A stretch of DNA of 64,000 bases from Octopus vulgaris (taxonomy: Eukaryota). The position numbers and the translations under genes are program-made. Each line of letters begins with the position of its first letter. Position 1 is the first letter of the stretch. Below are positions 5,460 through 64,000 of the stretch, piece by piece. Location: assembly GCA_951406725.2 (NCBI GenBank), contig OX597823.1, positions 70,308,001-70,372,000 on the forward strand. Direction: 5' to 3'. The notes beneath the pieces were generated by a model that did no database searches, was not told the origin of the DNA, and saw only the letters and a program-made list of their open reading frames with translations.

Positions 5460-5494
5460 GTTTCCGATGAAGAGCCCCGCTCGAAACGTTAAAC
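5460..5494 (+). ncRNA. Minimal hammerhead motif inside a short dispersed repeat (about 5390-5590)
   Basis: gttt-CCGATGA-A-GAGC-ccc-GCTC-GAAAC-GTT-aaac. Stem I is gttt/aaac; core carries a U4C variant. Confidence 0.6.
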
Positions 5495-16173: not shown

Positions 16174-16736
16174 TAGCAATTCATATTCCTCATATATATA
16201 TAACCCTAACCCTATATAAATTAGCATATGTATAAATTTATATACATGTATATAGGCATATGTCTGTGAGTGTGTTTGTGTAGCTATATATAATTATAGA
16301 TAGGGGTGGGAGAGAAAGAAATACATGCTTTACAGATACATATAATTATATAAGAGAGAAGGGAACTGAAAAAGAGCAATGAGAAAAATACATACACTTA
16401 AATATTTTTATGATTATAACATAAATAATAATTACATTTAATGTGAACATTCCGTGAAAAAATGGACTCACTACAATTGCAGTTGTTATTAATTTTATCG
16501 ACACTCAATAAAATTCTTAATCATTTGTTACAATGAGGAAAGATCGATAGATCGACTGACAGACAGGCAGACAGACAGAAAGACAGCTAAATGGATATTT
16601 TGTGGAACGGAAAGATTGTCATCAATGTCACAGATGTGTGTGTGCACCTGTATGTGTGTGTGTGAGTGAGTGTGATTAAAGACATACGTACATTGATTTG
16701 ACACACGTATATTTATGATTAGTAAATAACACCTAC

Positions 16737-17241
16737 TTCCCCATTCCTTAGCAGCGCTGACAGCTTTAGTTGAAACGTCTTCGATTGCTTGCTTCGCTGC
16801 TTCAATCTTCTCATCCACTTTATCTGGTCCTTCGGCATCTTCGTCGTCACTGCTGGTCGCGGGTTCAGAAGCATCCGAATTGGCTCCACCCTTGCGTGGT
16901 TTTTTCTTGCCAGGCAAAGGAGGAATATTAGGAGCGGCTGTGTCAGAGCCACTTTGTTCTGAGGCTGATTCTGTAACGGGAGATTCGTCACCACTTGATG
17001 CACCACCACCGCCGCCGCCGCCGCCACCACCACCAGCTCCAGTTACAACCGAAGTTGCCGTCGCCTCGGGACCAGGTGCAACAGCACTAGAAGCAGTGTC
17101 GTTCGTACTGCTTTCGGGCTGTTGAACGTCTTCTTTTCCATCTTGAGTCGGTTGCGCATCGGCTGATTCCTCAGCTGGTACGTTGCTATCCGAATCCTTT
17201 TTCTGAATGGCACCCCACCAGCTCGACACGGCATTAAACAT
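16737..17241 (-). CDS. SYAP1: Synapse-associated protein 1 (SYAP1/Sap47) homologue, first coding exon
   Basis: ATG at 17241 gives MFNAVSSWWG (human MFRGLSSWLG). An acidic low-complexity linker follows, ending AVSAAKEWG (human LLHQAKDFGN), then donor GTAGGT at 16736 (phase 1). GC-rich, codon-like island. Later exons including the BSD domain were not found in the window. Confidence 0.8.
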
Positions 17242-18065
17242 GTTGGCCGTGTTTTTCAGCCTGTTTCCTACTGAAAACGACTCCACTTTGTCTGTTTGGT
17301 GGATTCTCACTTAATAGAAAAGGCAGGTAGATAATACAAAAAAGGTTCCCCGTCAGCAAAATGACGACAGGTAGACTGAGAATACGTTTGTAAACACAAC
17401 TAAATCCGATGCACACGCTTACGTCATGTATATCAGTCCTGCACTGAATGTAGCAATTGGTGGAGGAAAGAGGGGGAGAAAACAAAGCTAGCTGTAACAG
17501 CATAATGTTAAAGTCAACATATTTACAGTAGCAGTGACACCATTGTGAGGAATGTTATTTGCAATAATAATTATCATAATAATATCTTCTGTTTTTTTTT
17601 TTAACGTTACTAAATATCATCTGTACCTAAATATACATTATATTACAATTAAATTTTTTAAAGATAATGCTAAAATTATATGCTGCTGAAATGCCTAATA
17701 ATCGCAATAAACCTTTTTTTTTTTTTTTTAAGGAAAAAAAAAAAAACACGGTTCATTTTTTATTTTAATCTATATTATAATGTTTCTTTCTGTTGTCACA
17801 ATGTTTCATATTTGAAAATTTTATTACGAAGTAAGATTACATGATATTCGGGCTTTTCTTAAGCGCATTGAATGAAGCGGAGTGAATGAAACCAGGAGTA
17901 TAAATATACTCGTTTTACTGGTAGCTTGTTTCTTTACAATATTCGCTACTGACTATTTCTAGAACCGTTGTGAACGCAATTATGATAAATACAACGACTA
18001 GCTTGATCTACATGTTTTGTTTACTCTGATTATACATATATATATATAATATATAAATATATATA

Positions 18066-41205: not shown

Positions 41206-41420
41206 TGTGACAATTATTCAGTTGCCATTATAAAAATCCGAGTTTCGGATGTTGGGGCAGAAAACTGCTCCGGTATCTCGTCAGTTATTAAGACAAATAA
41301 AAATGCTATGATTTTCATAGCATTTTTGTTTGTCTTAATAACTGATGAGATGCCGGAGCAGTTTTCTGCCCCAACATCCGAAACTCGGATTTTTATTATG
41401 GCAACCGAATAATTGTCACA
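41206..41420. repeat. 215 bp near-perfect palindrome whose arms carry a hammerhead-like motif
   Basis: Arms 41206-41311 and 41315-41420 with a 3 nt loop. Right arm reads taataa-CTGATGA-GATG...CATC-c-GAAAC-tcgga-ttt-ttatta. Confidence 0.85.
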
Positions 41421-41689: not shown

Positions 41690-42365
41690 TTTAGGAAGTG
41701 ATATTTGGTGCATGAGGGAGTTTGATGCAGCTGCTCTCATCTGCACTTCCAGCCACGAAGTTGGTTCATCTGGGACAGTTGACAGTAAGAGGTCCAGCTT
41801 TATTTTGAAGACACCTACATCCACCTCATGCAGGTCTCTCAGGTCCTTTGGGAGGATATTGAAGGGATGTGGACCTCTGAAGCCCAGGTTATTGCTGTAT
41901 CTTGTTCTACATCTTGATGGCAAATTTGGAGTCCTTGGCACTATCCAGTGGTGCCCAGTTCTAGTATTTGTGTAACTCTTGATGCCAAAGTTTGGGACAA
42001 GTCCTTCCAGGATCTTCCAGATGTATATTATGACATATCTTTCTCGCCTACACTCTAAGAAATAGTCTTAATCTCTTGAGTCTTTCCCAGAAGCTTATAT
42101 GCTGCATAGAGGCTATCTTCTTTGTGTAGCTTTGTTGGATTGCCTCAAGTTCTGAGATTAATTTGACACTGGTTGGTGACCATAGCTGAGAGCAATAGTC
42201 AAAGTGGCTTAGGACAAGTGTCCTCCAGAGGACCATCATGGTTTCCTGGTCTCTTGTTCTAAAAGCTCTGAGAATCCATCTGGTCAGCCACCTGCACTTC
42301 ATTGCCAATTTAGCAACATGCACATGGAAGGATGCATCATTACTCATGTAAATGCCCAGGTCTTG
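41690..42365 (-). mobile_element. CR1/L2-group LINE 3' fragment
   Basis: DLGIYMSNDASF, LSHFDYCSQLWSP and FNILPKDLRDL; homologous to 1-420. Confidence 0.88.
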
Positions 42366-42498: not shown

Positions 42499-43000
42499 TA
42501 TTTAATCATATCAAAGGGAAATGGAAATTAATAGAAATTTTCATTTCTAGTGGCCTAGTGTGTAAAAATTTAGTCCAAAGACTGTGTATGCGCAGTAGAT
42601 TTTTGAAAAAATTAGGATGTATAAACAAGAGGCACATAATTGATCGCCTTGTGTTTATATATTTAATCTAAGGTGTCCTTGTTGAAAACGATTTCACCTT
42701 GCAAGTAAAAGTAATTTACTTGCTAAACTAAAATCAGAAACCAATTGGTCCAGGAAATTAGATAGTAAAATGTTTTTATTTTTTCATTTCGTTCATGTCG
42801 CATTTTATCCCCAATTTTGTGGTTATAGAACCTAGCTGTTCTTTCTAGCGTGTTGAAACCCATGAGTGGATTCCTCGTGTGTTTAAATTTACACTGTATT
42901 TTATGAGTAATACATAGTCTTTGGACTAAATTTTTACACGCTAGGCCACTGAAGGTGAATACTTCTATTAGTTTCCATTTCCCTTCGATATGATTAAATA
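42499..43000. repeat. 502 bp element with about 90 bp imperfect terminal inverted repeats
   Basis: 42499-42589 is the reverse complement of 42910-43000 (gtggcctagtgtgtaaaaatttagtccaaagact versus agtctttggactaaatttttacacgctaggccac). Confidence 0.8.
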
Positions 43001-43023
43001 CGTATATATATATATATATATAT

Positions 43024-45621
43024 AAACAAGTCAAATTGCAATAAAATAAAATTAATTATTATCGCTGGTATTTCTAGCACGAGCCATATATTATTCATAT
43101 ATCAGTACATTAAGGCGAAATATGTGCTAGAAACACAGAAGCTAGATAAATTTAGTGAAATGAAAATAAAAACATTTACTAACTCGGTTCCTCTTAGACT
43201 GCAGTTTCGTTCTTTTCAGCAATAAAGATAATTTATTTGCTCAGGGAGAATTCATCAGTAAGAGCCCTGTTGTTCTGAGATCCTAACTCACTAGAAGCAT
43301 GTGCTTCTAATGATTTGCTCTCTCTAACTAATCAGATCACTGCGCAGACTCAGAACGTCCCGACAAAACTAGGGATTTCTGGTATATTGTCTAACGCTCA
43401 AGTCAAATTGCGATAAAATAAAATTAATTATTATCGCTGGTATTTCTAGCACGAGCCATATATTATTCATATATCAGTACATTAAGGCGAAATATGTGCT
43501 AGAAACACAGAAGCTAGATAAATTTAGTGGAATGAAAATAAAAACATTTACTAACTCGGTTCCTCTTAGACTGCAGATTCGTTCTTTTCAGCAATAAAGA
43601 TAATTTATTTGCTCAGGGAGAATTCATCGGTAAGAGCCCTGTTGTTCTGAGATCCTAACTCACTAGAAGCATGTGCTTCTAATGATTTGCTCTCTCTAAC
43701 TAATCAGATCACTGCGCAGACTCAGAACGTCCCGACAAAACTAGGGATTTCTGGTATATTGTCTAACGCTCAAAATTTATTGAGAAATATGTAAACAAGT
43801 CAAATTGCGATAAAATAAAATTAATTATTATCGCTGGTATTTCTAGCACGAGCCATATATTATTCATATATCAGTACATTAAGGCGAAATATGTGCTAGA
43901 AACACAGAAGCTAGATAAATTTAGTGAAATGAAAATAAAAACATTTACTAACTCGGTTCCTCTTAGACTGCAGATTCGTTCTTTTCAGCAATAAAGATAA
44001 TTTATTTGCTCAGGGAGAATTCATCGGTAAGAGCCCTGTTGTTCTGAGATCCTAACTCACTAGAAGCATGTGCTTCTAATGATTTGCTCTCTCTAACTAA
44101 TCAGATCACTGCGCAGACTCAGAACGTCCCGACAAAACTAGGGATTTCTGGTATATTGTCTAACGCTCAAAATTTATCGAGAAATATGTAAACAAGTCAA
44201 ATTGCGATAAAATAAAATTAATTATTATCGCTGGTATTTCTAGCACGAGCCATATATTATTCATATATCAGTACATTGAGGCGAAATATGTGCTAGAAAC
44301 ACAGAAGCTAGATAAATTTAGTGAAATGAAAATAAAAACATTTACTAACTCGGTTCCTCTTAGACTGCAGTTTCGTTCTTTTCAGCAATAAATATAATTT
44401 ATTTGCTCAGGGAGAATTCATCGGTAAGAGCCCTGTTGTTCTGAGATCCTAACTCACTAGAAGCATGTGCTTCTAATGATTTGCTCTCTAACTAATCAGA
44501 TCACTGCGCAGACTCAGAATGTCCCGACAAAACTAGGGATTTCTGGTATATTGTCTAACGCTCAAAATTTATCGAGAAATATGTAAACAAGTCAAATTGC
44601 GATAAAATAAAATAAATTAATATCGCTGGTATTTCTAGCACGAGCCATATATTATTCATATATCAGTACATTAAGGCGAAATATGTGCTAGAAACACAGA
44701 AGCTAGATAAATTTAGTGAAATGAAAATAAAAACATTTACTCACTCGGTTCCTCTTAGACTACAGTTTCGTTCTTTTCAGCAATAAAGATAATTTATTTG
44801 CTCAGGGAGAATTCATCGGTAAGAGCCCTGTTGTTCTGAGATCCTAACTCACTAGAAGCATGTGCTTCTAATGATTTGCTCTCTCTAACTAATCAGATCA
44901 CTGCGCAGACTCAGAACGTCCCGACAAAACTAGGGATTTCTGGTATATTGTCTAACGCTCAAAATTTATCGAGAAATATGTAAACAAGTCAAATTGCGAT
45001 AAAATAAAATTAATTATTATCGCTGGTATTTCTAGCATGAGCCATATATTATCCATATTCAGTACATTAAGGCGAAATATGTGCTAGAAACACAGAAGCT
45101 AGATAAATTTAGTGGAATGAAAATAAAAACATTTACTAACTCGGTTCCTCTTAGACTGCAGTTTCGTTCTTTTCAGCAATAAAGATAATTTATTTGCTCA
45201 GGGAGAATTCATCGGTAAGAGCCCTGTTGTTCTGAGATCCTAACTCACTAGAAGCATGTGCTTCTAATGATTTGCTCTCTCTAACTAATCAGATCACTGC
45301 GCAGACTCAGAACGTCCCGACAAAACTAGGGATTTCTGGTATATTGTCTAACGCTCAAAATTTATCGAGAAATATGTAAACAAGTCAAATTGCGATAAAA
45401 TAAAATTAATTATTATCGCTGGTATTTCTAGCACGAGCCATATATTATTCATATATCAGTACATTAAGGCGAAATATGTGCTAGAAACACAGAAGCTAGA
45501 TAAATTTAGTGAAATGAAAATAAAAACATTTACTAACTCGGTTCCTCTTAGACTGCAGTTTCGTTCTTTTCAGCAATAAAGATAATTTATTTGCTCAGGG
45601 AGAATTCATCGGTAAGAGCCC
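43024..45621 (-). repeat. Tandem array of about 397 bp units (6.6 copies), one hammerhead motif per unit; retrozyme-like
   Basis: Unit starts (aagtcaaattgc) at 43028, 43400, 43797, 44194, 44589, 44986 and 45382. Units are near-identical and flanked on both sides by (TA)n. Confidence 0.95.
43191..43264 (-). ncRNA. Type-I hammerhead ribozyme (unit 1 of the 397 bp array)
   Basis: Minus strand reads CTCTTA-CTGATGA-aTTCT...AGAAc-GAAA-CTGCAG-TC-TAAGAG. Stem I is a perfect 6 bp and the triplet is GUC. Predicted cut between 43197 and 43196. Confidence 0.8.
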
Positions 45622-45759
45622 GATATATATATATATATATATATGTATGTATATGTATATATGTAATATATATATATATATATTTTTTTTTCTTTGTAGT
45701 TTCAGCTCAGAGCTGTGGCCATGCTGGAGCACCACAGTTTTGTGACACTGTTATTACTG

Positions 45760-47560
45760 AGAGCCTCTAATATGTGGCACTTGGTGAAGAATGGAGTTTG
45801 ATGTAGCTACCCTCATTTGCACCTATTGCCGTGAGGTAGACTCATCTAGGACTTTTGACAGGAAGAGGTCCAGCCTTGATTTTAAAATGCCTACATCTAC
45901 TTTATGCAGGTTCCTCAAGCTCTTTGGAAGAATATTAAAAAGCTGTGTGCTCCTGAAACTCTGGCTGTTGCAGTAACTGGTCCTGAAGTGCGATGGCATT
46001 GCCGGGATCTTTGGCACTGTGCAGTGTCAACCCGTTCTGGCATTGGTGTAACTTTCAATGCCAAAATTTGGCACAGTTCTTTCCAGGATCTTTCAGATGT
46101 TTATTACTGCATACCTCTACTATCTTCGCTCCAGAGAGTAGAGTCTTAGCAGTTTCAGCCTTTCCCAGTAGCTGAGCTGTTGCAAAGAGACGATCATCTT
46201 TGTGAAGCTTCACTGGATTGCTTCAAGGTCCGCTGTTAATTTTACATTGTTGGGTGATCATAGCTGGGTGCAGTAATCCAGGTGGCTGAGGACGAATATT
46301 CTCCATAGGACCATCATGGTTTCCTTATCTCTGGTTCTGAATGTTCTCAGGATCCATCCATCCAGTTGTCTGCACTTTGTCGCCATCCTGGTAATGTGCA
46401 CTTGGAAAGAGGTATCATCACTCATGTCGAAACCCGGGTCCCTCACTGATTAACACTCTGGAATTGAAATTCCCTGTGGATCAGTGTACCCTGTAAGTTT
46501 CATATTCAGTTTTGGGTACTGGTAGTGCATGGCTTGGAATTTTTGAGCATTAAACTGCATATTATTATCCTCAGCCCATCTGTAAATTGAATCCAATTCC
46601 TGCTGCAGATGTGCAACATAGATGAGATTCTGTATTTTCTGCAAGACTTTCATATTGTCTGTGTAGCAAGCAAGGGTGGCTATCTGGGCAGTTGAGGGCA
46701 TATCTGAGAGGGCCGCTATGAAAAGCAGTGGTCCCAAGACAGTGCCCTGTGGAACACCGCTCACTATTTGTATTTTCATTGAGGTGGCTCCATTGGCCAC
46801 TACTGCCTGACTTCTATCTTTCAGAAAGTCATGTAACCACTCTCCAAGTTTTCCAGCTATGCCGAGATCATGCAGTTTGTGGCATATCATACCATGATCT
46901 ACTTTATCAAAAGCTTTTGCAAAGTCAAGGTATATTATGAGCACATTTGAGTTTTTTAGTAACTGCCTGAACACCCAGTCATAATGTTGCAAGAGCTGGA
47001 TCAGGCAGCTCCTACCTGGTCAAAAGCCATGCTGGGTCTCACTCAGCAAGTTATTTTCTTCAAGGAATGCGATTAGTTTCCCTCTGGTCAGAGAGATAGG
47101 CCTATATGTTTTGGCATCTGCTCTGCTTCCCCCTTTATGGATTGGGCATATTAATCCCTCCTTCAGCTTCCTTGGTAGCTTGCCATTTGCAAGAAAGCTC
47201 TGGAAGAGAATCTGGATGGGTTTTGCCAGGGCACACACGATTTGAGGAGGATTGCTAGGAAACCATCAGGACCAGCACTTGAGTTTGCGTCCACCTCATC
47301 TATGGCTAGTAGTACATTTTCTTCACTAATGTCGATGTATTCCATCATAACTACCCTGCTGGTTATAGGTGAGGTGGCAAAGAAATCCACTGGTTTGTTC
47401 ACTTGTCTGCATTCCAATGGGGTGGTAAAGACACTTTTGAACTGGTCATTCAGTACCTCACTGATCCTGGTTGGACTATCTGTGAGGGAGCCTTTCTTTT
47501 GGAAGAGGGCTCCTATCTTGCAGTGTACTGAGACTGTTTCTTTCGCTTAATAAAAGAAGG
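45760..47560 (-). mobile_element. CR1/L2-group LINE, decayed RT
   Basis: SSAGPDG, YRPISLT, YLDFAKAFDKVDH, GVPQGTVLGP and LSHLDYCTQL. Confidence 0.9.
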
Positions 47561-47573
47561 CATTTGGGTTTGA

Positions 47574-47614
<41 letters not shown>

Positions 47615-47629
47615 ATGTATGTATGTATG

Positions 47630-47674
<45 letters not shown>

Positions 47675-47705
47675 ATATTATATACATATAATATGTAAAA
47701 TATAT

Positions 47706-48015
47706 ATGTGCCGGTGGCATGTAAAAAACAACATTCGAATGTGGTCATTGCCAATGCCACCGAATTGGCTCCCATGCAGGTAGCACGTAAAAACACCTTT
47801 GAGCATGGACTTTGCCAGGACCGCCTGACTGGCCCTCATGCCGGTGGCATGTAAAAACACCAACTACCCTCTCGGAGTAGTTGGTGTTAGGAAAGGCATC
47901 CAGCTGTAGAAACTTTGCCAGATCAGATTGAGCCTGATGCAGCCTCTGGCTCACCAGTCCTCAGTCAAACTGTCCAACCCATACCAGCATGGAAAAAAGA
48001 CGTTAAATGATGATG
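47706..48015 (+). mobile_element. SINE (catcatc-ended family)
   Basis: ggtgttaggaaaggcatccagctgtagaaac...gacgttaaatgatgatga; second partial copy at 48340-48495. Confidence 0.75.
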
Positions 48016-48574
48016 AATATATATATATATATATATATATAAGGAAAAATAAGTTCAAAAATGAACAATTCAAACTTTTTGAGAGGTCCAAAAAGAGAGA
48101 AAGAATGATTTCTAATAAAGATTCATCATATTCATCATATTCAAAACAGTCGGAGCAAGTAATAAGAATATGAAAATAGTAGTTGAAAAATATCGTTATA
48201 GGCATAAATATACCATAAACAATTATAGAAAAATGGAGGAGAAAAAGGTGTTGCATCAGAATTAGATTTAATACAAAATAGGATTCAATACATATGCGCA
48301 TTTCAAAGGACAATGCAAATATCTAAGAAAAAATTATAACCATACACTCTCAGAGTGGTTGGCATCAGGAAGGGCATCCAGCTGTAGAAACTCTCCCAGA
48401 CCAGATTGGAGCCTGGTGCAGCCACTGGCTCTCCAGACCTCAGTCAAACTGTCCAACCCATGCTAGCATAGAAAACGGACGTTAAACGATGATGATACAC
48501 ATATAAATACATATAACGAGAATAAGAAAACCCATTTTATACAATTCGATATATGTAACTATTACCAGTCTATT

Positions 48575-51232
48575 ACGGAGGATCTACTGGTGAAAGTAAT
48601 TGTTTGCCGAGAAATTTGTGGCTATAACCCCTTTAGAAAAATACATTATTTTCACAGCTAGGACAACCTTAATTTCTTTTAAAAACAAACTCTGGACCCG
48701 TAATGATATTGACGAAAATTTCAACGTTACTATGGGTTCCTCTGATTCAGCCCAGATCATGGTCCTGGTGGGCCTGTTCCTCCTTTCAAAAATTAAGGAG
48801 GAATTCCTAAACATCAGGGGAGGTTTGTATAGGGACGATGCTCTATTTGCTATTTCAGGTTGTACATTACCAACAATCTATAGAATGGAGAAAAACTTAA
48901 ATTTTTTAAGGTATATAATTTGGAGATCTTGTCTGAAAATACCACTAAAACTGTTAACTTTCTAGATGTAACATTAAATTTGGATAATAGGTTATTTTAT
49001 CCCTATTATAAGCCAGATAAAAACCATCCAATATATCCACACATTATCTAACCATCCCCAAAGTATCATCAACGGAGTGATTAGGGGAATTTCGATTAAA
49101 TGATCTAACTTGTCAGCAAACCAAATAGTTTCTAATAATGTCACACTGTTTTTAACACAGCTTTGAGGAATAGTGGTTTTAGTGAGGATATATATATCCT
49201 ATTCAAATACTGATTAGGTAAATGTTTTCCAAACCTAGCTGAATCCAATATTGATATCTCATTTGTAAATAACCATTGGGAGATTTTCTAGGTATCCTAG
49301 CATGTATAATAATAATAATGATAATAATAATAACAAAAAGCAGCAAACTGGAAGTAAGACTGAGAAAACGGGAAATTATATGGTTTAACCCCTACCACTT
49401 TTTCCCTGTAGGTTAAAAATCTCCCTAAGATGTTTTTTTAATATCATCAATAAGAATTTCCCTGTGGGCCATAAACACCGTTCTATCTTTAATAAATCCT
49501 GTCTAAAACTTGCATACTCATCTATGCCTAATTTAGGATCGATAATCACATGGAACAATAGATTCAAGCTTGGGAATAATGGGAATAAGGGTAGCCCCAA
49601 TACGAGTAGGATTAATAACAGATAAAGAACGCACAGGGATGAGCAACTGAAATAAAGCCTGCAATTGTCAGAACTGCAATTTATGTCCATTAGAGGCTTC
49701 CTGTCTAAGGAAAAATGTCATATACAAGACTGAGGTCATAATTGCCCATCAACCTAGGAAAGTATACATAGGAACTACCACAGATTTCAAAACAAGATAT
49801 AGAGAAAACATCAGCTCTTTCTTGAACCCAGGAACAAAAAATGCCACTGCGCTGGCTACATATATTAACAAACTAAAAATGCAAGATAAGGAATTTAGAT
49901 TAGACTAGTTGATCATAACGGAAACCACCCCATATAAAAAGTATACTGGAAAGAGTAAGTTATGTACGAAGGAAGCAATAGGTATACTTCATACAGACAA
50001 GAAAATTTTAATTAATAAAATATCAGACCGTATAATTGCATGTAGGCATAAATATTTAGCTACGTTTAAGTTTTTTAAAAAGTAGAAAGGATAGAATCTG
50101 ATCTTATGAACTTTGACTTACCTTAAGAAAATAATAATTTCTTCCACTTTGGCTAGATTTGATCAACCTAAAAGTTTAAGGGTAAATTTTTTATACATCT
50201 TAGTAATTCACAGGCTTAGTGTCACATTCAAACCTATTAACCTTATATATATATATAAGTTGTAAGTTAACGATCATTGTAAATTGTAAATCACAAATAT
50301 CAGTGAATTTTTAGACTGTTCCCACTAACATTTTGCATATATGGATTCCCCTTACTTTAATTGTTTACCATTTTTAATTATCAGCAATCCGACTATCTTA
50401 TATAGTTAACCAGGTTTAACCCAAATTTGAATCCTCATTTTATTTTATTTCTACAAATATTTTAAATTTCATTTTCATTTGCACAAATGTTTTACTTCAC
50501 AACTTTTTCCACTTCACAAAGCCTTTCTATATTATTGCAAACTTCTTTTTAAAATACTATAACATTTTTTTACAAAAATATAAGATTACTGAATATGACT
50601 TCAAGTTTTGTAAGTAGGAGATATTTTAAGCTTTCTCAATGTTTAAACTATTTTAATTGATTTATTTGTACCTCTGATGAGAGAAATGCGACTATTTGTT
50701 TCGGCTGGAAAACTCACCCTATACAAACACATTCCTCGAAATGATTGTAAGGTTTTGTAATACTGCTTTTCTTTGGATTGTAATAATCGAGCGCTTGAAA
50801 CCTGACATCTTGATGTATTTTTTTATGTATATTGTATTCCCATGATAATGGAACTTGACCTATAAAATCTGTCATCCGCTTTGATTTTGTTATATTTCAC
50901 TCATATTGAGCACTAACAAGGTGTGTTGCAACAAAGGTTCTCCTCTTGTCTTATTATTCAATATCTGCTCAAACTGAGCACTTCTTGCAGCTTTAACTTA
51001 TGGAGCAACAATTTCCAGGGCTGTTCGCAAAAAATATCCCAATACCAACAAGGGGACTATACATGGATTTATTATTACAAAATAATTAGTGAGTTCATCA
51101 GAAGAATGAGATGGAAAGCATACTTTTACGATGATAAGAAAGGAAGGCTAATTAATAATAATAGAAATTTTAACAACTGCAACTTAAAGACCTATAGATA
51201 TCCACCCCACAACCCCACACTTGAGAACTTTG
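48575..51232 (+). mobile_element. Decayed Penelope-like element (Naiad-type): 5'-truncated RT + GIY-YIG, 3' region with HHR, then start of a tandem copy
   Basis: RT remnants FNVTMGSSDSAQ, GGLYRDD, VNFLDVTLNL, SNHP, IIWFNP and LAYSSMPNL. Endonuclease CNCQNCNLCPLEASCLRKNVIYK...VYIGTT...CRHK, stop at 50085. Downstream N-terminus from ATG 51000: KNIPIP...EFIRRMRWKAYF. Confidence 0.85.
50670..50753 (+). ncRNA. Hammerhead ribozyme in the Penelope pLTR
   Basis: acct-CTGATGA-GAGaaatg...cattcCTC-GAAA-tgattG-TA-aggt; stem I is acct/aggt. Confidence 0.7.
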
Positions 51233-51376
51233 CTCATATTGAGCACTAATTAGATGCACAGCATATATATATATATATATATATATATTTCCTATATATA
51301 TATATATATATTACTGGTGTTAAATTGATGTTAATTAAATTAATATCCAATTTCTCAATATATCCAATATATTAAT

Positions 51377-51421
<45 letters not shown>

Positions 51422-51425
<4 letters not shown>

Positions 51426-54400
51426 CAACAATTGAGGGTAAAATTAATTAATTATTAATCAATTTCACCAAGTGTTCAGTATGCAAAGGGACCATTTAAG
51501 GCGAATTCAAATTATTACATTATATAAAAGGGCTTAGTAAAATAAATTACTTTGCCGCATACTGAACTCATTAGAAATAGCAGCCAAAAAACTTTTTAAA
51601 ACTATTTCTAATACTTAAAGAAAATCTCTCTCATATAGTGTTTGCTTAATTCAACTCACAAAAGTTTGGGGGTAAGGACATCAAAAAATCAAATGCAAAG
51701 GTTATTTGAGAACGTACGTTTCAAGATTAGTCAAAACGACACTTCTATCATCAGCTCAGAAACTCCTTGGTTTGGATTTGGAAACACTGAAAGTAAGAAC
51801 ATACCCTTTCGGCTTCTCATCGCCTTCGAAGATCTGCTCGTAACTAACAGTGCCAACAAACTCAAATAAGCAAGCGAAGAATTTCTGTTCTCCCCTTTCC
51901 ACCAGCGTGGGTTAAAATCATCAAACACTATGCTTATTTCGGTAAAATCCGAAGCATTAATTAGAGGGAGATTAATTATAATTTCAACAATTGAGGGTAA
52001 AATTAATTAATTATTAATCAATTTCATCAAGTGTTCAGTATGCAAAGGGACCATTTAAGGCGAATTCAAATTATTACATTATATAAAAGGGCTTAGTAAA
52101 ATAAATTACTTTGCCGCATACTGAACTCATTAGAAATAGCAGCCAAAAAACTTTTTTAAAACTATTTCTAATACTTAAAGAAAATCTCTCTCATATAGTG
52201 TTTGCTTAATTCAACTCACAAAAGTTTGGGGGTAAGGACATCAAAAAATCAAATGCAAAGGTTATTTGAGAACGTACGTTTCAAGATTAGTCAAAACGAC
52301 ACTTCTATCATCAGCTCAGAAACTCCTTGGTTTGGATTTGGAAACACTGAAAGTAAGAACATACCCTTTCGGCTTCTCATCGCCTTCAAAGATCTGCTCG
52401 TAACTAACAGTGCCAACAAACTCAAATAAGCAAGCGAAGAATTTCTGTTCTCCCCTTTCCACCAGCGTGGGTTAAAATCATCAAACACTATGCTTATTTC
52501 GGTAAAATCCGAAGCATTAATTAGAGGGAGATTAATTATAATTTCAACAATTGAGGGTAAAATTAATTAATTATTAATCAATTTCACCAAGTGTTCAGTA
52601 TGCAAAGGGACCATTTAAGGCGAATTCAAATTATTACATTATATAAAAGGGCTTAGTAAAATAAATTACTTTGCCGCATACTGAACTCATTAGAAATAGC
52701 AGCCAAAAAACTTTTTTAAAACTATTTCTAATACTTAAAGAAAATCTCTCTCATATAGTGTTTGCTTAATTCAACTCACAAAAGTTTGGGGGTAAGGACA
52801 TCAAAAAATCAAATGCAAAGGTTATTTGAGAACGTACGTTTCAAGATTAGTCAAAACGACACTTCTATCATCAGCTCAGAAACTCCTTGGTTTGGATTTG
52901 GAAACACTGAAAGTAAGAACATACCCTTTCGGCTTCTCATCGCCTTCGAAGATCTGCTCGTAACTAACAGTGCCAACAAACTCAAATAAGCAAGCGAAGA
53001 ATTTCTGTTCTCCCCTTTCCACCAGCGTGGGTTAAAATCATCAAACACTATGCTTATTTCGGTAAAATCCGAAGCATTAATTAGAGGGAGATTAATTATA
53101 ATTTCAACAATTGAGGGTAAAATTAATTAATTATTAATCAATTTCATCAAGTGTTCAGTATGCAAAGGGACCATTTAAGGCGAATTCAAATTATTACATT
53201 ATATAAAAGGGCTTAGTAAAATAAATTACTTTGCCGCATACTGAACTCATTAGAAATAGCAGCCAAAAAACTTTTTTAAAACTATTTCTAATACTTAAAG
53301 AAAATCTCTCTCATATAGTGTTTGCTTAATTCAACTCACAAAAGTTTGGGGGTAAGGACATCAAAAAATCAAATGCAAAGGTTATTTGAGAACGTACGTT
53401 TCAAGATTAGTCAAAACGACACTTCTATCATCAGCTCAGAAACTCCTTGGTTTGGATTTGGAAACACTGAAAGTAAGAACATACCCTTTCGGCTTCTCAT
53501 CGCCTTCAAAGATCTGCTCGTAACTAACAGTGCCAACAAACTCAAATAAGCAAGCGAAGAATTTCTGTTCTCCCCTTTCCACCAGCGTGGGTTAAAATCA
53601 TCAAACACTATGCTTATTTCGGTAAAATCCGAAGCATTAATTAGAGGGAGATTAATTATAATTTCAACAATTGAGGGTAAAATTAATTAATTATTAATCA
53701 ATTTCACCAAGTGTTCAGTATGCAAAGGGACCATTTAAGGCGAATTCAAATTATTACATTATATAAAAGGGCTTAGTAAAATAAATTACTTTGCCGCATA
53801 CTGAACTCATTAGAAATAGCAGCCAAAAAACTTTTTTAAAACTATTTCTAATACTTAAAGAAAATCTCTCTCATATAGTGTTTGCTTAATTCAACTCACA
53901 AAAGTTTGGGGGTAAGGACATCAAAAAATCAAATGCAAAGGTTATTTGAGAACGTACGTTTCAAGATTAGTCAAAACGACACTTCTATCATCAGCTCAGA
54001 AACTCCTTGGTTTGGATTTGGAAACACTGAAAGTAAGAACATACCCTTTCGGCTTCTCATCGCCTTCGAAGATCTGCTCGTAACTAACAGTGCCAACAAA
54101 CTCAAATAAGCAAGCGAAGAATTTCTGTTCTCCCCTTTCCACCAGCGTGGGTTAAAATCATCAAACACTATGCTTATTTCGGTAAAATCCGAAGCATTAA
54201 TTAGAGGGAGATTAATTATAATTTCAACAATTGAGGGTAAAATTAATTAATTATTAATCAATTTCACCAAGTGTTCAGTATGCAAAGGGACCATTTAAGG
54301 CGAATTCAAATTATTACATTATATAAAAGGGCTTAGTAAAATAAATTACTTTGCCGCATACTGAACTCATTAGAAATAGCAGCCAAAAAACTTTTTTAAA

Positions 54401-55618
54401 ACTATTTCTAATACTTAAAGAAAATCTCTCTCATATAGTGTTTGCTTAATTCAACTCACAAAAGTTTGGGGTAAGGACATCAAAAAATCAAATGCAAAGG
54501 TTATTTGAGAACGTACGTTTCAAGATTAGTCAAAACGACACTTCTATCATCAGCTCAGAAACTCCTTGGTTTGGATTTGGAAACACTGAAAGTAAGAACA
54601 TACCCTTTCGGCTTCTCATCGCCTTCGAAGATCTGCTCGTAACTAACAGTGCCAACAAACTCAAATAAGCAAGCGAAGAATTTCTGTTCTCCCCTTTCCA
54701 CCAGCGTGGGTTAAAATCATCAAACACTATGCTTATTTCGGTAAAATCCGAAGCATTAATTAGAGGGAGATTAATTATAATTTCAACAATTGAGGGTAAA
54801 ATTAATTAATTATTAATCAATTTCACCAAGTGTTCAGTATGCAAAGGGACCATTTAAGGCGAATTCAAATTATTACATTATATAAAAGGGCTTAGTAAAA
54901 TAAATTACTTTGCCGCATACTGAACTCATTAGAAATAGCAGCCAAAAAACTTTTTTAAAACTATTTCTAATACTTAAAGAAAATCTCTCTCATATAGTGT
55001 TTGCTTAATTCAACTCACAAAAGTTTGGGGGTAAGGACATCAAAAAATCAAATGCAAAGGTTATTTGAGAACGTACGTTTCAAGATTAGTCAAAACGACA
55101 CTTCTATCATCAGCTCAGAAACTCCTTGGTTTGGATTTGGAAACACTGAAAGTAAGAACATACCCTTTCGGCTTCTCATCGCCTTCGAAGATCTGCTCGT
55201 AACTAACAGTGCCAACAAACTCAAATAAGCAAGCGAAGAATTTCTGTTCTCCCCTTTCCACCAGCGTGGGTTAAAATCATCAAACACTATGCTTATTTCG
55301 GTAAAATCCGAAGCATTAATTAGAGGGAGATTAATTATAATTTCAACAATTGAGGGTAAAATTAATTAATTATTAATCAATTTCACCAAGTGTTCAGTAT
55401 GCAAAGGGACCATTTAAGGCGAATTCAAATTATTACATTATATAAAAGGGCTTAGTAAAATAAATTACTTTGCCGCATACTGAACTCATTAGAAATAGCA
55501 GCCAAAAACTTTTTTAAAACTATTTCTAATACTTAAAGAAAATCTCTCTCATATAGTGTTTGCTTAATTCAACTCACAAAAGTTTGGGGGTAAGGACATC
55601 AAAAAATCAAATGCAAAG
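51422..55618 (-). repeat. Tandem array of about 560 bp units (7.5 copies), one hammerhead motif per unit; retrozyme-like
   Basis: Unit starts (atttcaacaattgag) at 51422, 51981, 52541, 53101, 53661, 54221, 54780 and 55340. Units differ at only a few positions. Confidence 0.95.
51707..51758 (-). ncRNA. Type-I hammerhead motif (unit 1 of the 560 bp array; repeated in each full unit)
   Basis: Minus strand reads TGAG-CTGATGA-tagaagtgtcgttttgactaatctt-GAAA-CGTACG-TT-CTCA. Stem III is palindromic (ACGTACGT), the triplet is GUU, and stem II is imperfect. Confidence 0.7.
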
Positions 55619-56052
55619 TTCGGATTTTACCGAAATAAGCATAGTGTTTGATGATTTTAACCCACGCTGGTGGAAAGGGGAGAACAGAAATTCTTCGCTT
55701 GCTTATTTGAGTTTGTTGGCACTGTTAGTTACGAGCAGATCTTCGAAGGCGATGAGAAGCCGAAAGGGTATGTTCTTACTTTCAGTGTTTCCAAATCCAA
55801 ACCAAGGAGTTTCTGAGCTGATGATAGAAGTGTCGTTTTGACTAATCTTGAAACGTACGTTCTCAAATAACCTTTGCATTTGATTTTTTGATGTCCTTAC
55901 CCCCAAACTTTTGTGAGTTGAATTAAGCAAACACTATATGAGAGAGATTTTCTTTAAGTATTAGAAATAGTTTTAAAAAAGTTTTTTGGCTGCTATTTCT
56001 AATGAGTTCAGTATGCGGCAAAGTAATTTATTTTACTAAGCCCTTTTATATA

Positions 56053-56054
<2 letters not shown>
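55619..56054 (+). repeat. Inverted partial copy (436 bp) of the 560 bp unit; HHR motif at 55814-55865 on the plus strand
   Basis: ttcggattttaccgaaataagc...cccttttatataat is the reverse complement of the unit; ORF 55703-55930(-) equals ORF 51642-51869(+). Confidence 0.95.
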
Positions 56055-56086
<32 letters not shown>

Positions 56087-56144
56087 GTATTAAAAAGTGG
56101 TTGTGGGATTAATACGTAGGATAGAGATCATGATATATATATAT

Positions 56145-61317: not shown

Positions 61318-61352
61318 ATTTCTGATGAAGAGCTCCACTCGAAACATGAAAT
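61318..61352 (+). ncRNA. Minimal hammerhead motif with degenerate cleavage site
   Basis: attt-CTGATGA-A-GAG-ctcca-CTC-GAAAC-ATG-aaat; same repeat family as 5460. Confidence 0.45.
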
Positions 61353-62430: not shown

Positions 62431-63563
62431 ATTTTGGTTACCTTCCCACCACCAAATGTGGGGAAAATATCTAATCTATGAAAAAAAGTTATATATTTTA
62501 TTAGAGGCTGAAACTTCTTCAGTCATTACCTAGGGTGTTACATTTCCAATTATTCAGTTGGTGAATGACAAACAGAATGACAATACCTAATGAAAAATAG
62601 GGGAAAAAAACTTATTGAAATATTATTAGTTAACAGCACAGAAATGCATTTTATCTATTTAATTCCATACACATAACTATTTTCAATCACTTCAGTACCA
62701 TGTACAAGAAACAGATAAGTATGGGAAATAACTTTTGTTGACTATATCAAATTCATTCTGACTTATATCAAATTTACATTTGCTACTTTTGCATTTTGGG
62801 ATTGGAAAGAAAATTATCTTTATGATCTTTAAGTGTAAAGTATGGATTCAAGTGCCACTAAAAATTCTACTTTACCATCTATTATTAGGCTGGTAGTTAA
62901 TTTTTTTTTTTTTTCCAAATTAATAACATGGAGTTGTTTTTGATATGTGTTAGTATTAATATCTGAAAGGAATCTATAGGATATGTAGTTATCACTTTCA
63001 TGTAAATTTTTAGATATGTTGAAAGAAACCTGGGTGTTTTTGACTGTTAAACCGTAAGGGTCGACAAAATGATATCCTTTTGATCTTTCTAAAACAGGAT
63101 TCTAGTCACTGCTCTGCTATAAATGCCCAACTTCAAGATTCTCAGAAATGAAACTGCCCCCCCCCTACACACTTCCTGAATAAGTTTTCAGCTATAGTTA
63201 AATCTATGCTCTGCTACTAATGGAGTTGTTGGGTTATCATTAATATCTTTTCCCTTCTATAGGAATATCATTAAAATCCTTTTCCTTCTGTATACCACTA
63301 CAATTTATTCCCTTCTCTGGGGATTATACTGCAGTGGTTCCGTCATTGCCTGGCTTAGGCTTATGCAAGGGTTTCCACTTAAAGGACTTATCAATTATGC
63401 TGTGTGGCATGAGTGCAAAATTGTACCACTGCTTGGGACCTTCATACTTTGAATTGATTTTTTTTGTTTTTTTTTTTGTTAGAATTAAAGTGTAATGCCT
63501 GTATCAAATTATGGACTATCATGATTTTTATATGATACCTTTTATTTTGTCTTCTCTTTGCAG

Positions 63564-63833
63564 AATTACCATCTGACTTCATTACATTATTTTCATCTAC
63601 TGGAAGAGACAGGTATTTCCATTTCCATCGGTCAGCTACGCTGGTACACAACATGTTTCAATCGAGTATTTATCCGTCTCGGTCAGTTCAAGCCTTTCTT
63701 CTTGCATATGTGGTTTTCATTTGGTGTTGCTTTTGGCTTGATTTCCATGGTGATATCTCTGTTTGTTCTCACTCTGATGGTTTTCAACACTTTAAGTCAA
63801 CAGCCTGTCGACCAGCAAGTATTAACACCAGTG
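63564..63833 (+). CDS. MBTPS2: Site-2 protease, exon 2
   Basis: Polypyrimidine tract plus CAG at 63561-63563. 90 codons NYHLTSLHYFHLLEETGISISIGQLRWYTTCFNRVF...WFSFGVAFGLISM...QQVLTPV (human [20 protein letters not shown]...WFNFGMVFGVIAM). Donor GTATGT at 63834; in frame with exon 1. Confidence 0.92.
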
Positions 63834-64000
63834 GTATGTTGTTTTGATTTATCAGATGATGGAAGTGGTTGTAGTGACATTGGTTTTTGTTGGTGTTGTT
63901 TAATCTTAAAATAATCTTCAGTCTTATAGGTTTGAGTATGAAAATTATTTAACAATTTTTTAAAATGATATGAAATATTTTCTAGCTTTCTTGGCTCATT

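Follow-up and report, generated by a model that had tools for sequence, protein, structure and literature searches.

Two dispersed hammerhead retrozyme families of Octopus vulgaris with paired start sites at (TA)n, probably copied in trans by Hydra-clade Penelope-like proteins

Organization of the locus

The window analyzed here is a stretch of 64,000 nucleotides from Octopus vulgaris (contig OX597823.1, positions 70,308,001 to 70,372,000), and all coordinates refer to it. An earlier note on this DNA had described two tandem arrays, of 397-bp and 560-bp units, each beside (TA)n, and both were recovered on the minus strand. Array 1 (family 1, 43023 to 45621) consists of six units and a truncated seventh, with seven unit starts; the first unit measures 372 bp and the others measure 395 to 397 bp. 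Its fixed outer end at 43023 adjoins a (TA)n run (43004 to 43023), and its other end, at the random position 45621, lies next to a second run (45623 to 45683). Array 2 (family 2, 51423 to 55618) holds 7.5 units of 559 to 560 bp with eight starts and begins at its outer site, next to a (TA)n run at 51382 to 51422. Adjoining it is a 439-nt inverted arm on the plus strand (55619 to 56057), absent from the earlier note, which carries a hammerhead (55814 to 55865) and ends at the inner site in a (TA)n-rich run (56047 to 56090).

The elements predicted within the units all lie on the minus strand of the arrays. In the first unit of array 1, a subterminal hairpin (43038 to 43065; z of -1.9), which contains a short motif, motif i, stops 15 nt short of the outer end and is followed by a stem, stem ii (43071 to 43133), whose loop holds the inner start site (about 43103) and motif ii (43108 to 43119). 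A type I hammerhead, repeated in every unit, occupies 43191 to 43264, with a predicted cut between 43197 and 43196, and hairpin iii (43285 to 43312) lies upstream of it on the ribozyme strand. The first family-2 unit has the corresponding subterminal hairpin with motif i at 51437 to 51469 (z of -4.4), stem ii at 51475 to 51566, with motif ii (51493 to 51505) and the inner start site (about 51516) in its loop, and hairpin iii at 51570 to 51613, here downstream of the hammerhead. The latter (51706 to 51758) is again of type I and present in every unit; its predicted cut, between 51711 and 51710, follows UU.

Minus-strand hammerheads with a palindromic stem III had been noted before, and we find the core and stems I to III, the palindromic stem III included, in every unit of both arrays, with 0 matches in Rfam at the gathering score. 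The core reads CUGAUGA in the first unit of array 1 and CCGAUGA in the other six of the seven, and it varies freely at position 7. Core and stems are kept across subfamilies that are about 20% apart, and stem II of family 1 includes four pairs in which both sides have changed. For the stems around motif ii and hairpin iii, an RNA structure on the ribozyme strand is supported by 43 G-U cells versus 3 A-C cells, in line with the earlier reading. Given the CCGAUGA core in most units of array 1 and the family-2 cut after UU, cleavage may be weak.

Between the arrays lies a decayed Penelope-like element (PLE) on the plus strand (48510 to 51262), whose relatives are 79 to 87% identical. The reverse transcriptase (RT), GIY-YIG, and hammerhead ascribed to it are all present: an RT piece (48543 to 49151), a CxCx5C linker, CNCQNCNLC (49660 to 49686), a C-terminal GIY-YIG (about 49717 to 50064) followed by the 3' UTR, a canonical hammerhead (50671 to 50752), and the 62-nt tail of its family, running from the inner (50895) to the outer (50957) end. 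After this comes part of the 5' ORF (about 51000 to 51231), with an RWK motif near 51110, from a second tandem unit that is deleted down to a tail remnant. The earlier label of Naiad type does not hold: in Naiads the GIY-YIG is N-terminal and a canonical hammerhead is missing, whereas here the RT precedes a C-terminal GIY-YIG, no N-terminal GIY-YIG is found, and a canonical hammerhead is present. Naiads resemble the present elements in (TA)n preference, tails, and inversions. Domain order, RWK, CxCx5C, canonical hammerhead, and (TA)n insertion instead place the element in the Hydra clade, the motifs having been matched by eye to the published alignment. The DKT region is deleted in this copy, and DKT (in place of DKG) occurs in related loci and in intact families. 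Pfam returned nothing above the cutoff for three PLE pieces.

The window also holds a fragment (51312 to 51357, plus strand) that had been taken as an inverted end related to the two arrays (51311 to 51360). It is indeed a retrozyme end, but one that belongs to neither array: it is the terminal fragment of a third family, with a unit of about 520 to 530 bp.

The arrays belong to dispersed retrozyme families

Both families are dispersed in hundreds to thousands of copies. A family-1 23-mer has 246 genome matches and a family-2 21-mer has 5397, versus 0 for the control in each case. Full-length array units are 95 to 100% identical to their relatives, and units inside one array differ by 0 to 1.5%. 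At 397 and 560 bp, tandem, and free of ORFs and LTRs, the units have the format of non-LTR retrozymes (about 150 to 1000 bp), as well as one type I hammerhead each and a multilocus distribution; no PLE protein similarity was found inside them. On these sequence features, the arrays are independent insertions of two dispersed non-LTR retrozyme families with predicted self-cutting RNA.

Animal non-LTR retrozymes (Cervera and de la Pena 2020, PMC7229834; Li et al. 2026, bioRxiv 10.64898/2026.07.22.740005) are likewise described as AT-rich noncoding tandem units that each span a few hundred bp, with a single type I hammerhead in each, scattered as monomers to multimers and coexisting with PLEs, by which their mobilization has already been proposed there. 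Relative to those accounts, the octopus families add mapped dual start sites, a tail of 75 to 110 nt, (TA)n targets, and outer-plus-inner inverted arms. Xenopus retrozymes have a homologous PLE pLTR, whereas none was found for the octopus families, which are known here from DNA, among the Hydra families examined. No paper on octopus retrozymes was found in mainly open-access sources without Repbase.

Two fixed start sites, one per arm

The earlier note had predicted that array ends would coincide with (TA)n in a fixed phase. Genome-wide mapping bears this out, and random phasing was not seen. In each family, arms begin at either of two fixed sites next to (TA)n, which lie 75 to 110 nt apart. 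The family-1 outer end adjoins (TA)n at all 25 of 25 other loci, and 36 family-1 arms divide into 29 outer, 4 inner, and 3 other starts. For family 2, 46 events were found in 49 loci, and every arm start except one lies at q1 or q80-102. The retrozymes thus show the PLE insertion signature of fixed 3' ends, a tail, 5' truncation, and an inverted arm.

Inverted insertions nearly always combine one outer with one inner arm. This pairing was found in 27 of the 28 classifiable family-2 events (binomial 1e-7 at p = 0.5), in 16 of 17 insertions of subfamily 1e, in 12 of 12 of family 3 (where the first arm was ascertained as outer), and in autonomous Hydra families in 4 clear cases and 1 shifted case of 5. 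In 23 insertions, the arms of one insertion differ by 1.2%, versus a subfamily median of 6.0%; the arms of the sole outer-plus-outer case differ by 6.5%. The two arms of an insertion would thus derive from one template. Inverted arms could also have been homogenized by gene conversion. We found no paper that reports pairing of one arm per site, again in mainly open-access sources without Repbase.

Shared motifs and the search for an autonomous partner

Motifs i, ii, and iii had been put forward as conserved cis signals common to both arrays. Their positions are correct, and no other ungapped match between the two units scores better than these three, but unanchored they are not significant: the sum of the top three matches was reached in 19 of 150 dinucleotide shuffles and the chain score in 523 of 2000. 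With motifs i and ii tied to the outer end as mapped, in a test devised after the motifs had been seen, 0 of 400 shuffles reach the score, so that these two pass the shuffled-control check in anchored form and fail it otherwise. Anchored global alignment of family-1 with family-2 ends was not significant (z of 1.6 and 0.9), and no cross-family profile HMM scored above 0.0 bits. Motif iii is not a common feature: its order relative to the hammerhead differs between the families, and its sequence is lost in family-1 subfamilies. The subterminal hairpin in which motif i sits is found in the third family as well. Subfamilies 1e and 2d and family 3 have no motif ii core, yet all three still use fixed ends, and the subfamilies without it still use both start sites. 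Genome-wide, motif ii has 4325 matches versus 203 for the control; as a genome-wide signal it was rejected, because the 50 examined loci were families 1 or 2, singletons, or a coding stretch that is RT-like but unrelated.

Hydra ORFs that are still intact, with 957, 711, and about 713 amino acids, occur in the genome, and young intact Hydra families have tails of 62 to 120 nt with the same mixed outer and inner pairing. The expectation that autonomous PLE ends carry the same motifs failed for every autonomous tail examined; in the anchored test the lowest value among 18 pairs was 8 of 400, a negative result. The tails of families 1 to 3 are absent from the intact Hydra families A, B, C, and H and from the partial families D, E, F, and G, and both BLASTn and profile HMMs were negative for retrozyme tail homology in the Hydra families examined. 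Among the matches listed for 65 ORF-upstream extracts, only two indexing artifacts appeared. The most abundant intact family (B) is without a subterminal hairpin. Three loci considered in this search (L175, L238, and L368) are separate insertions adjoining PLE pieces. In the young family H, a 71-nt family-2 tail with the motif i hairpin is embedded in sense; it serves as an end in 0 of 32 cases, and family H was rejected as a partner or captor of the family-2 end because its copies continue to their own hammerhead and ends. As no homologous autonomous tail was found in the families examined, assignment of the copying protein to the Hydra clade rests on the insertion signature rather than on homology.

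The cis-signal claim therefore stands in part. By the anchored test, terminal features i and ii are shared, but a role as sufficient recognition signals is not supported, since the motif ii core is missing from lineages that use fixed ends, the embedded motif i tail is unused, and the autonomous tails examined do without the motifs. It is likely that stem ii and the subterminal hairpin present the start sites, with no short motif sufficient.

Which elements probably copy the retrozymes

Hydra-clade PLEs (Craig et al. 2021, PMC8557442; the clade includes Hydra-1_Obim) share with the elements studied here the RT, CxCx5C linker, C-terminal GIY-YIG, RWK motif, and, outside the decayed window copy, the DKT motif, together with the hammerhead, insertion into (TA)n, incomplete tandems, inverted copies truncated at the 5' end, and a tail that is often at one end only. 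They differ in tail length (62 to 120 nt here, 30 to 40 nt as published), and the copy in the window is decayed; the present counts put numbers on the one-end rule and show it in noncoding families as well. Because (TA)n sites and two fixed starts are also features of Penelope-type elements, such elements likely copy the retrozymes, and because the Hydra PLEs of this genome show the same insertion signature, mobilization by them is likely. We therefore consider that families 1 and 2 are probably non-autonomous hammerhead retroelements with dual start sites at (TA)n, for which a Penelope-like protein of the Hydra clade acts in trans as the copying enzyme. The earlier idea of PLE-driven, (TA)n-targeting retroelements thus survives through genome-wide end mapping, but not with the local PLE as the driver.

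The same elements might be mobilized by another (TA)n-targeting PLE clade (Naiad, Neptune, or Poseidon), which we regard as improbable. Cephalopod Naiads prefer (TA)n, and tails and inversions are described for all PLEs (Craig et al., PMC8557442); the motif ii matches include RT-like coding copies that belong, as typed by eye, to another kind of PLE, and no Hydra tail with homology to those of the retrozymes was found in the families examined. However, Naiads have reportedly long been inactive in cephalopods, besides having no canonical hammerhead, while the young intact Hydra families have the tails and mixed pairing noted above.

It is more improbable still that the arrays are satellites, in which one PLE-derived end was inserted and then multiplied locally by unequal crossing-over, the hammerhead being a relic. 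Such a model is put forward in bioRxiv 10.64898/2026.07.22.740005, and it would suit the homogeneity of units within arrays. Units 2 and 4 of array 2 have two variants in common, which implies a degree of local duplication or else a mixed template. Against the satellite model, a single inverted insertion can carry tandem units in each of its arms, with both outer edges exactly at start sites, most loci have 1 to 3 units and one random end, and the hammerhead core and stems are maintained across diverged subfamilies.

That the two arrays are parts of the PLE they enclose, in one functional system driven through common cis motifs, is largely refuted and scarcely credible, even though all three lie inside 13 kb and the anchored test is positive for motifs i and ii: the PLE is Hydra-type, broken, older than the arrays by the identity of its relatives, on the opposite strand, without the motifs (53 to 324 of 400 shuffles reach the score in the anchored test), and 2.9 kb away from array 1, with other repeats in between. 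Moreover, only 1 of 58 family-1, 2 of 28 family-3, and 3 of 49 family-2 loci have pieces of a Hydra ORF within about 1.5 kb. The decayed PLE is likely a chance neighbor, its adjacency to the arrays probably arising only because all these elements favor (TA)n.

A model of paired priming

Under copying in trans by a Hydra-clade protein, transcription would run along the hammerhead strand, and self-cleavage would yield circular or multimeric RNA as a template. The protein would nick both (TA)n strands, with one cDNA primed per nick and one per start site, so that target-primed reverse transcription would use two sites on one template lineage, and the two cDNAs would be joined in the middle to give an inverted insertion. 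Hydra PLEs are known to target (TA)n, and PMC8557442 treats as an open question the way in which PLE insertions come to be tandem or inverted with a tail on one side. In the green anole PLE, the RT uses two start sites and extends both strands (PMC11167929). This Poseidon element (Frangieh et al. 2024) has two internal RT start sites that define a tail, cuts and extends both target strands at an AT-rich target, and is a predicted dimer; however, both strands used the same sites in vitro, whereas the octopus genomic arms are split one per site, and the octopus start sites lie at TA-like bases, upstream of the ORF or in a noncoding unit.

More tentatively, and with somewhat less than even confidence, we suggest that PLE integration might be concerted asymmetric dual priming, in which the protein, as a dimer, grips a single template through the folded 3' domain of the latter and directs the two cut target strands to two different start sites, giving the one-end-tailed inversion. 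Retrozymes would then be minimal circular substrates, inserted as rolling-circle multimers, and would define a structure-based recognition element common to the three families.

The families provide direct genomic evidence for retrozyme arrays arriving through PLE-type priming, and the near-strict rule of one arm per site is a constraint on any model of PLE integration. With natural templates of 400 to 560 nt and intact Hydra ORFs in the same genome, the system is suited to an in vitro test.

Results

The window lies in a 2.8-Gb genome (G000:C10:70308001-70372000). Array 1 (43023-45621, 397-bp units of family 1) and array 2 (51423-55618, 560-bp units of family 2, followed by a 439-nt inverted arm up to 56057) belong to dispersed non-LTR retrozyme families. 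Insertions start beside (TA)n at one of two fixed points, an outer and an inner site, with a tail between them. Such starts were mapped in families 1, 2, and 3. The array ends are phased rather than random, and the (TA)n targeting proposed in the earlier note is upheld.

The clearest pattern is the pairing of the two sites in inverted insertions. For family 2, a body 21-mer has 5397 matches, and we used each cluster that occurs within the first 100 of them. L165, which duplicates L164, was removed, a composite present in five copies was treated as one event, and the arms were classified by eye. The 49 loci gave 46 events, namely, 17 single arms (10 outer and 7 inner) and 29 inverted insertions, of which 27 combine an outer with an inner arm, one is outer plus outer, and one is unclassified; L259 was scored as outer plus inner because a later insert splits one of its arms. 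If both sites were used about equally, 27 of 28 classified inversions would have a probability of about 1e-7. In 23 inverted insertions the two arms differ by 1.2% on average, the nearest other locus by 2.0%, and the subfamily by a median of 6.0%; the partner arm is nearer than every other locus in 16 of the 23. The arms of the lone outer-plus-outer case are 6.5% different.

Family 3 (1046 first-look candidates) has a unit of about 520-530 bp with a hammerhead and two ends. Half of the loci found via its outer tail (14/28) carry an inverted arm, which stops at the inner site in 12 and continues into the next unit in 2. The fragment at 51312-51357 in the window is a piece of this family. The family (L092-L120) has a tail like that of family 2 and a predicted stem at motif ii (stem ii) like that of family 1. 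The end of another family-2-like element (L392:2150-2420) has G-C in its subterminal hairpin where family 2 has G-U.

Outside the window, all 25 family-1 loci obtained as best full-length matches, a choice biased to full units, start at the outer site. When arms were anchored in the body (36 arms from 33 loci, 20 taken in genome order and 13 hand-picked), 29 were outer, 4 inner, and 3 other. Inversion frequency varies among subfamilies: none was seen among the best 1a matches (L001-L030), whereas inversions are common in 1e (L389-L418), where the stem ii loop is longer and the tail measures about 96 nt. The 22 inverted pairs of 1e comprise 16 mixed, 1 outer plus outer, 1 unresolved, and 4 unclassifiable.

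Each unit of both arrays contains a type I hammerhead core with stems I to III and a palindromic stem III (units numbered on the window + strand from 43796 in family 1 and 51982 in family 2; sense denotes the hammerhead strand). An Rfam search did not report the array hammerheads. Among 10 family-1 copies, which diverge by as much as about 20%, the core is invariant except for U4C and position 7, where any of the four bases occurs. Pairing is retained in 95.7% of cells in these copies, with 5 both-sided pair changes (4 in hammerhead stem II), and in 97.8% of cells in 14 family-2 copies, with 2 such changes; because the aligned rows are related, the shuffle counts for this pairing are not probabilities. 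Stem ii and the hairpin at motif iii together show 43 G-U cells on the sense strand against 3 A-C (cells not independent), which favors RNA structure on the hammerhead strand. Units within an array diverge by 0.1-0.9% (family 2) or 0-1.5% (family 1). Two variants are common to array-2 units 2 and 4 (51982-52541 and 53102-53661) and missing from the others.

The earlier note had claimed that both units share motifs i, ii, and iii. In an ungapped comparison of the two units they rank as the top three matches (in the order ii, i, iii), and 19 of 150 shuffles gave at least their summed score. Chain and global scores between family-1 and family-2 units were at chance level against shuffles, and the best local score, 29, fell among those of the shuffles, which averaged 22 and rose to 34. 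In a test anchored on the last 110 nt before the independently mapped outer end (offset of at most 15), 1a or 1b against 2a was equalled or exceeded by 0 of 400 shuffles, and 12 family-1 by family-2 pairs gave 0-15/400 in 11 and 76/400 in one; this statistic was picked after the motifs had been seen, and AT-rich hairpins inflate its matches. Global alignment anchored at the outer end was not significant. In families 1 to 3, motif i is part of a hairpin (z -1.3 to -4.4), and about 10-15 nt separate the core stem of this hairpin from the outer end. A similarly placed hairpin exists in groups A, C, E, and F of the autonomous Hydra elements of this genome, is inconsistent in the family of the Penelope-like element (PLE) of the window, and was not found in group B. 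Motif ii lies within the stem ii loop; relative to the inner start site, it is on the inner side in family 1 and on the outer side in family 2. Subfamilies 1e and 2d and family 3 have another sequence in place of its GGCGAA core and still use fixed ends. Motif iii comes before the hammerhead in one family and after it in the other, and family 1 does not retain its sequence. Thus, the resemblance at motifs i and ii, for which the claim stands in a weak sense, is probably due to a common origin of the end region, and that at motif iii is likely a coincidence.

The window PLE (48510-51262, +) is decayed, its reading frame broken by many stops and shifts. The order of RT, CxCx5C linker, GIY-YIG, hammerhead, tail, and then an ORF start with RWK fits the Hydra clade; Naiad identity, as first assigned, is excluded under the definition in PMC8557442, since RT precedes GIY-YIG and a hammerhead is present. 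Hydra-1_Obim is already listed there. Relatives (79-87% identity) have ends at 50895 or 50957 adjoining (TA)n. The view that the arrays bracket this element as one system is not borne out: it lies on the strand opposite to both arrays, has no end motif in common with them in the anchored shuffle test, and Hydra coding pieces occur near only 1/58 family-1, 3/49 family-2, and 2/28 family-3 loci.

Intact Hydra ORFs exist elsewhere in the genome, in families A (957 aa), B (711 aa), and H (about 713 aa). Family B has many copies of equal score and frame length and appears to be very recent. Five inverted copies of autonomous Hydra families pair outer with inner sites (4 clear, 1 shifted). In the Hydra families examined, no tail is homologous to those of families 1 to 3. 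Tails of about 70-120 nt occur in three or more Hydra families that have an intact ORF (L201-L217 and L326). A multicopy coding stretch at L142 and L155-L160 resembles the RT of a different PLE type, and its match to motif ii is due to chance.

Family H (L326/L327, G000:C4:75245500-75262000; L291-L358) has a 5.45-kb unit with a microsatellite-rich 3' UTR that holds a short inverted family-2 insertion (82 junction matches genome-wide); this 200-bp passenger is present in 30/30 copies fetched. A young family thus contains, in sense, the terminal 71 nt of the family-2 end. No stop at the embedded tail was found in 30 junction loci, nor in L294 and L295; therefore, either the family-2 tail alone is not a sufficient start signal or family H is not the partner.

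Further short hammerhead-like cores at 5464-5486, 41243-41383, and 61322-61344 are probably ends of additional PLE-type elements. A MITE-like 500-bp element with 90-bp inverted ends (42500-42999) lies immediately left of array 1. Decayed LINE RT fragments on either side of array 1 (41700-42360 and 45780-47560) show about 72% similarity to each other and are separate copies, not parts of one interrupted element. Open frames resembling host exons (16528-17310, minus; 63525-63914, plus) suggest that the arrays may sit in or near a gene.

Discussion

We propose that the hammerhead strand of the units would be transcribed into multimeric or circular RNA and that a PLE protein would cut both (TA)n strands, each 3' end priming one cDNA from the same template lineage, one at the inner and the other at the outer site. 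Run-round copying of the template would yield tandem units and random stopping truncated ends; the two cDNAs would be joined centrally, or one only would be completed. A biochemical precedent, in PMC11167929, has two start sites, extension of both strands, and a predicted dimer. In vitro, that PLE showed no strand asymmetry of start sites, whereas the arms of the insertions mapped here pair outer with inner.

Non-LTR retrozymes and their proposed mobilization by PLEs are described in PMC7229834, and PLE origin is argued in bioRxiv 10.64898/2026.07.22.740005. Neither these families nor the pairing rule turned up in the literature searches, although supplements and Repbase may hold them. The retrozyme families are of an already known kind, and what is added is the quantified dual-priming signature.
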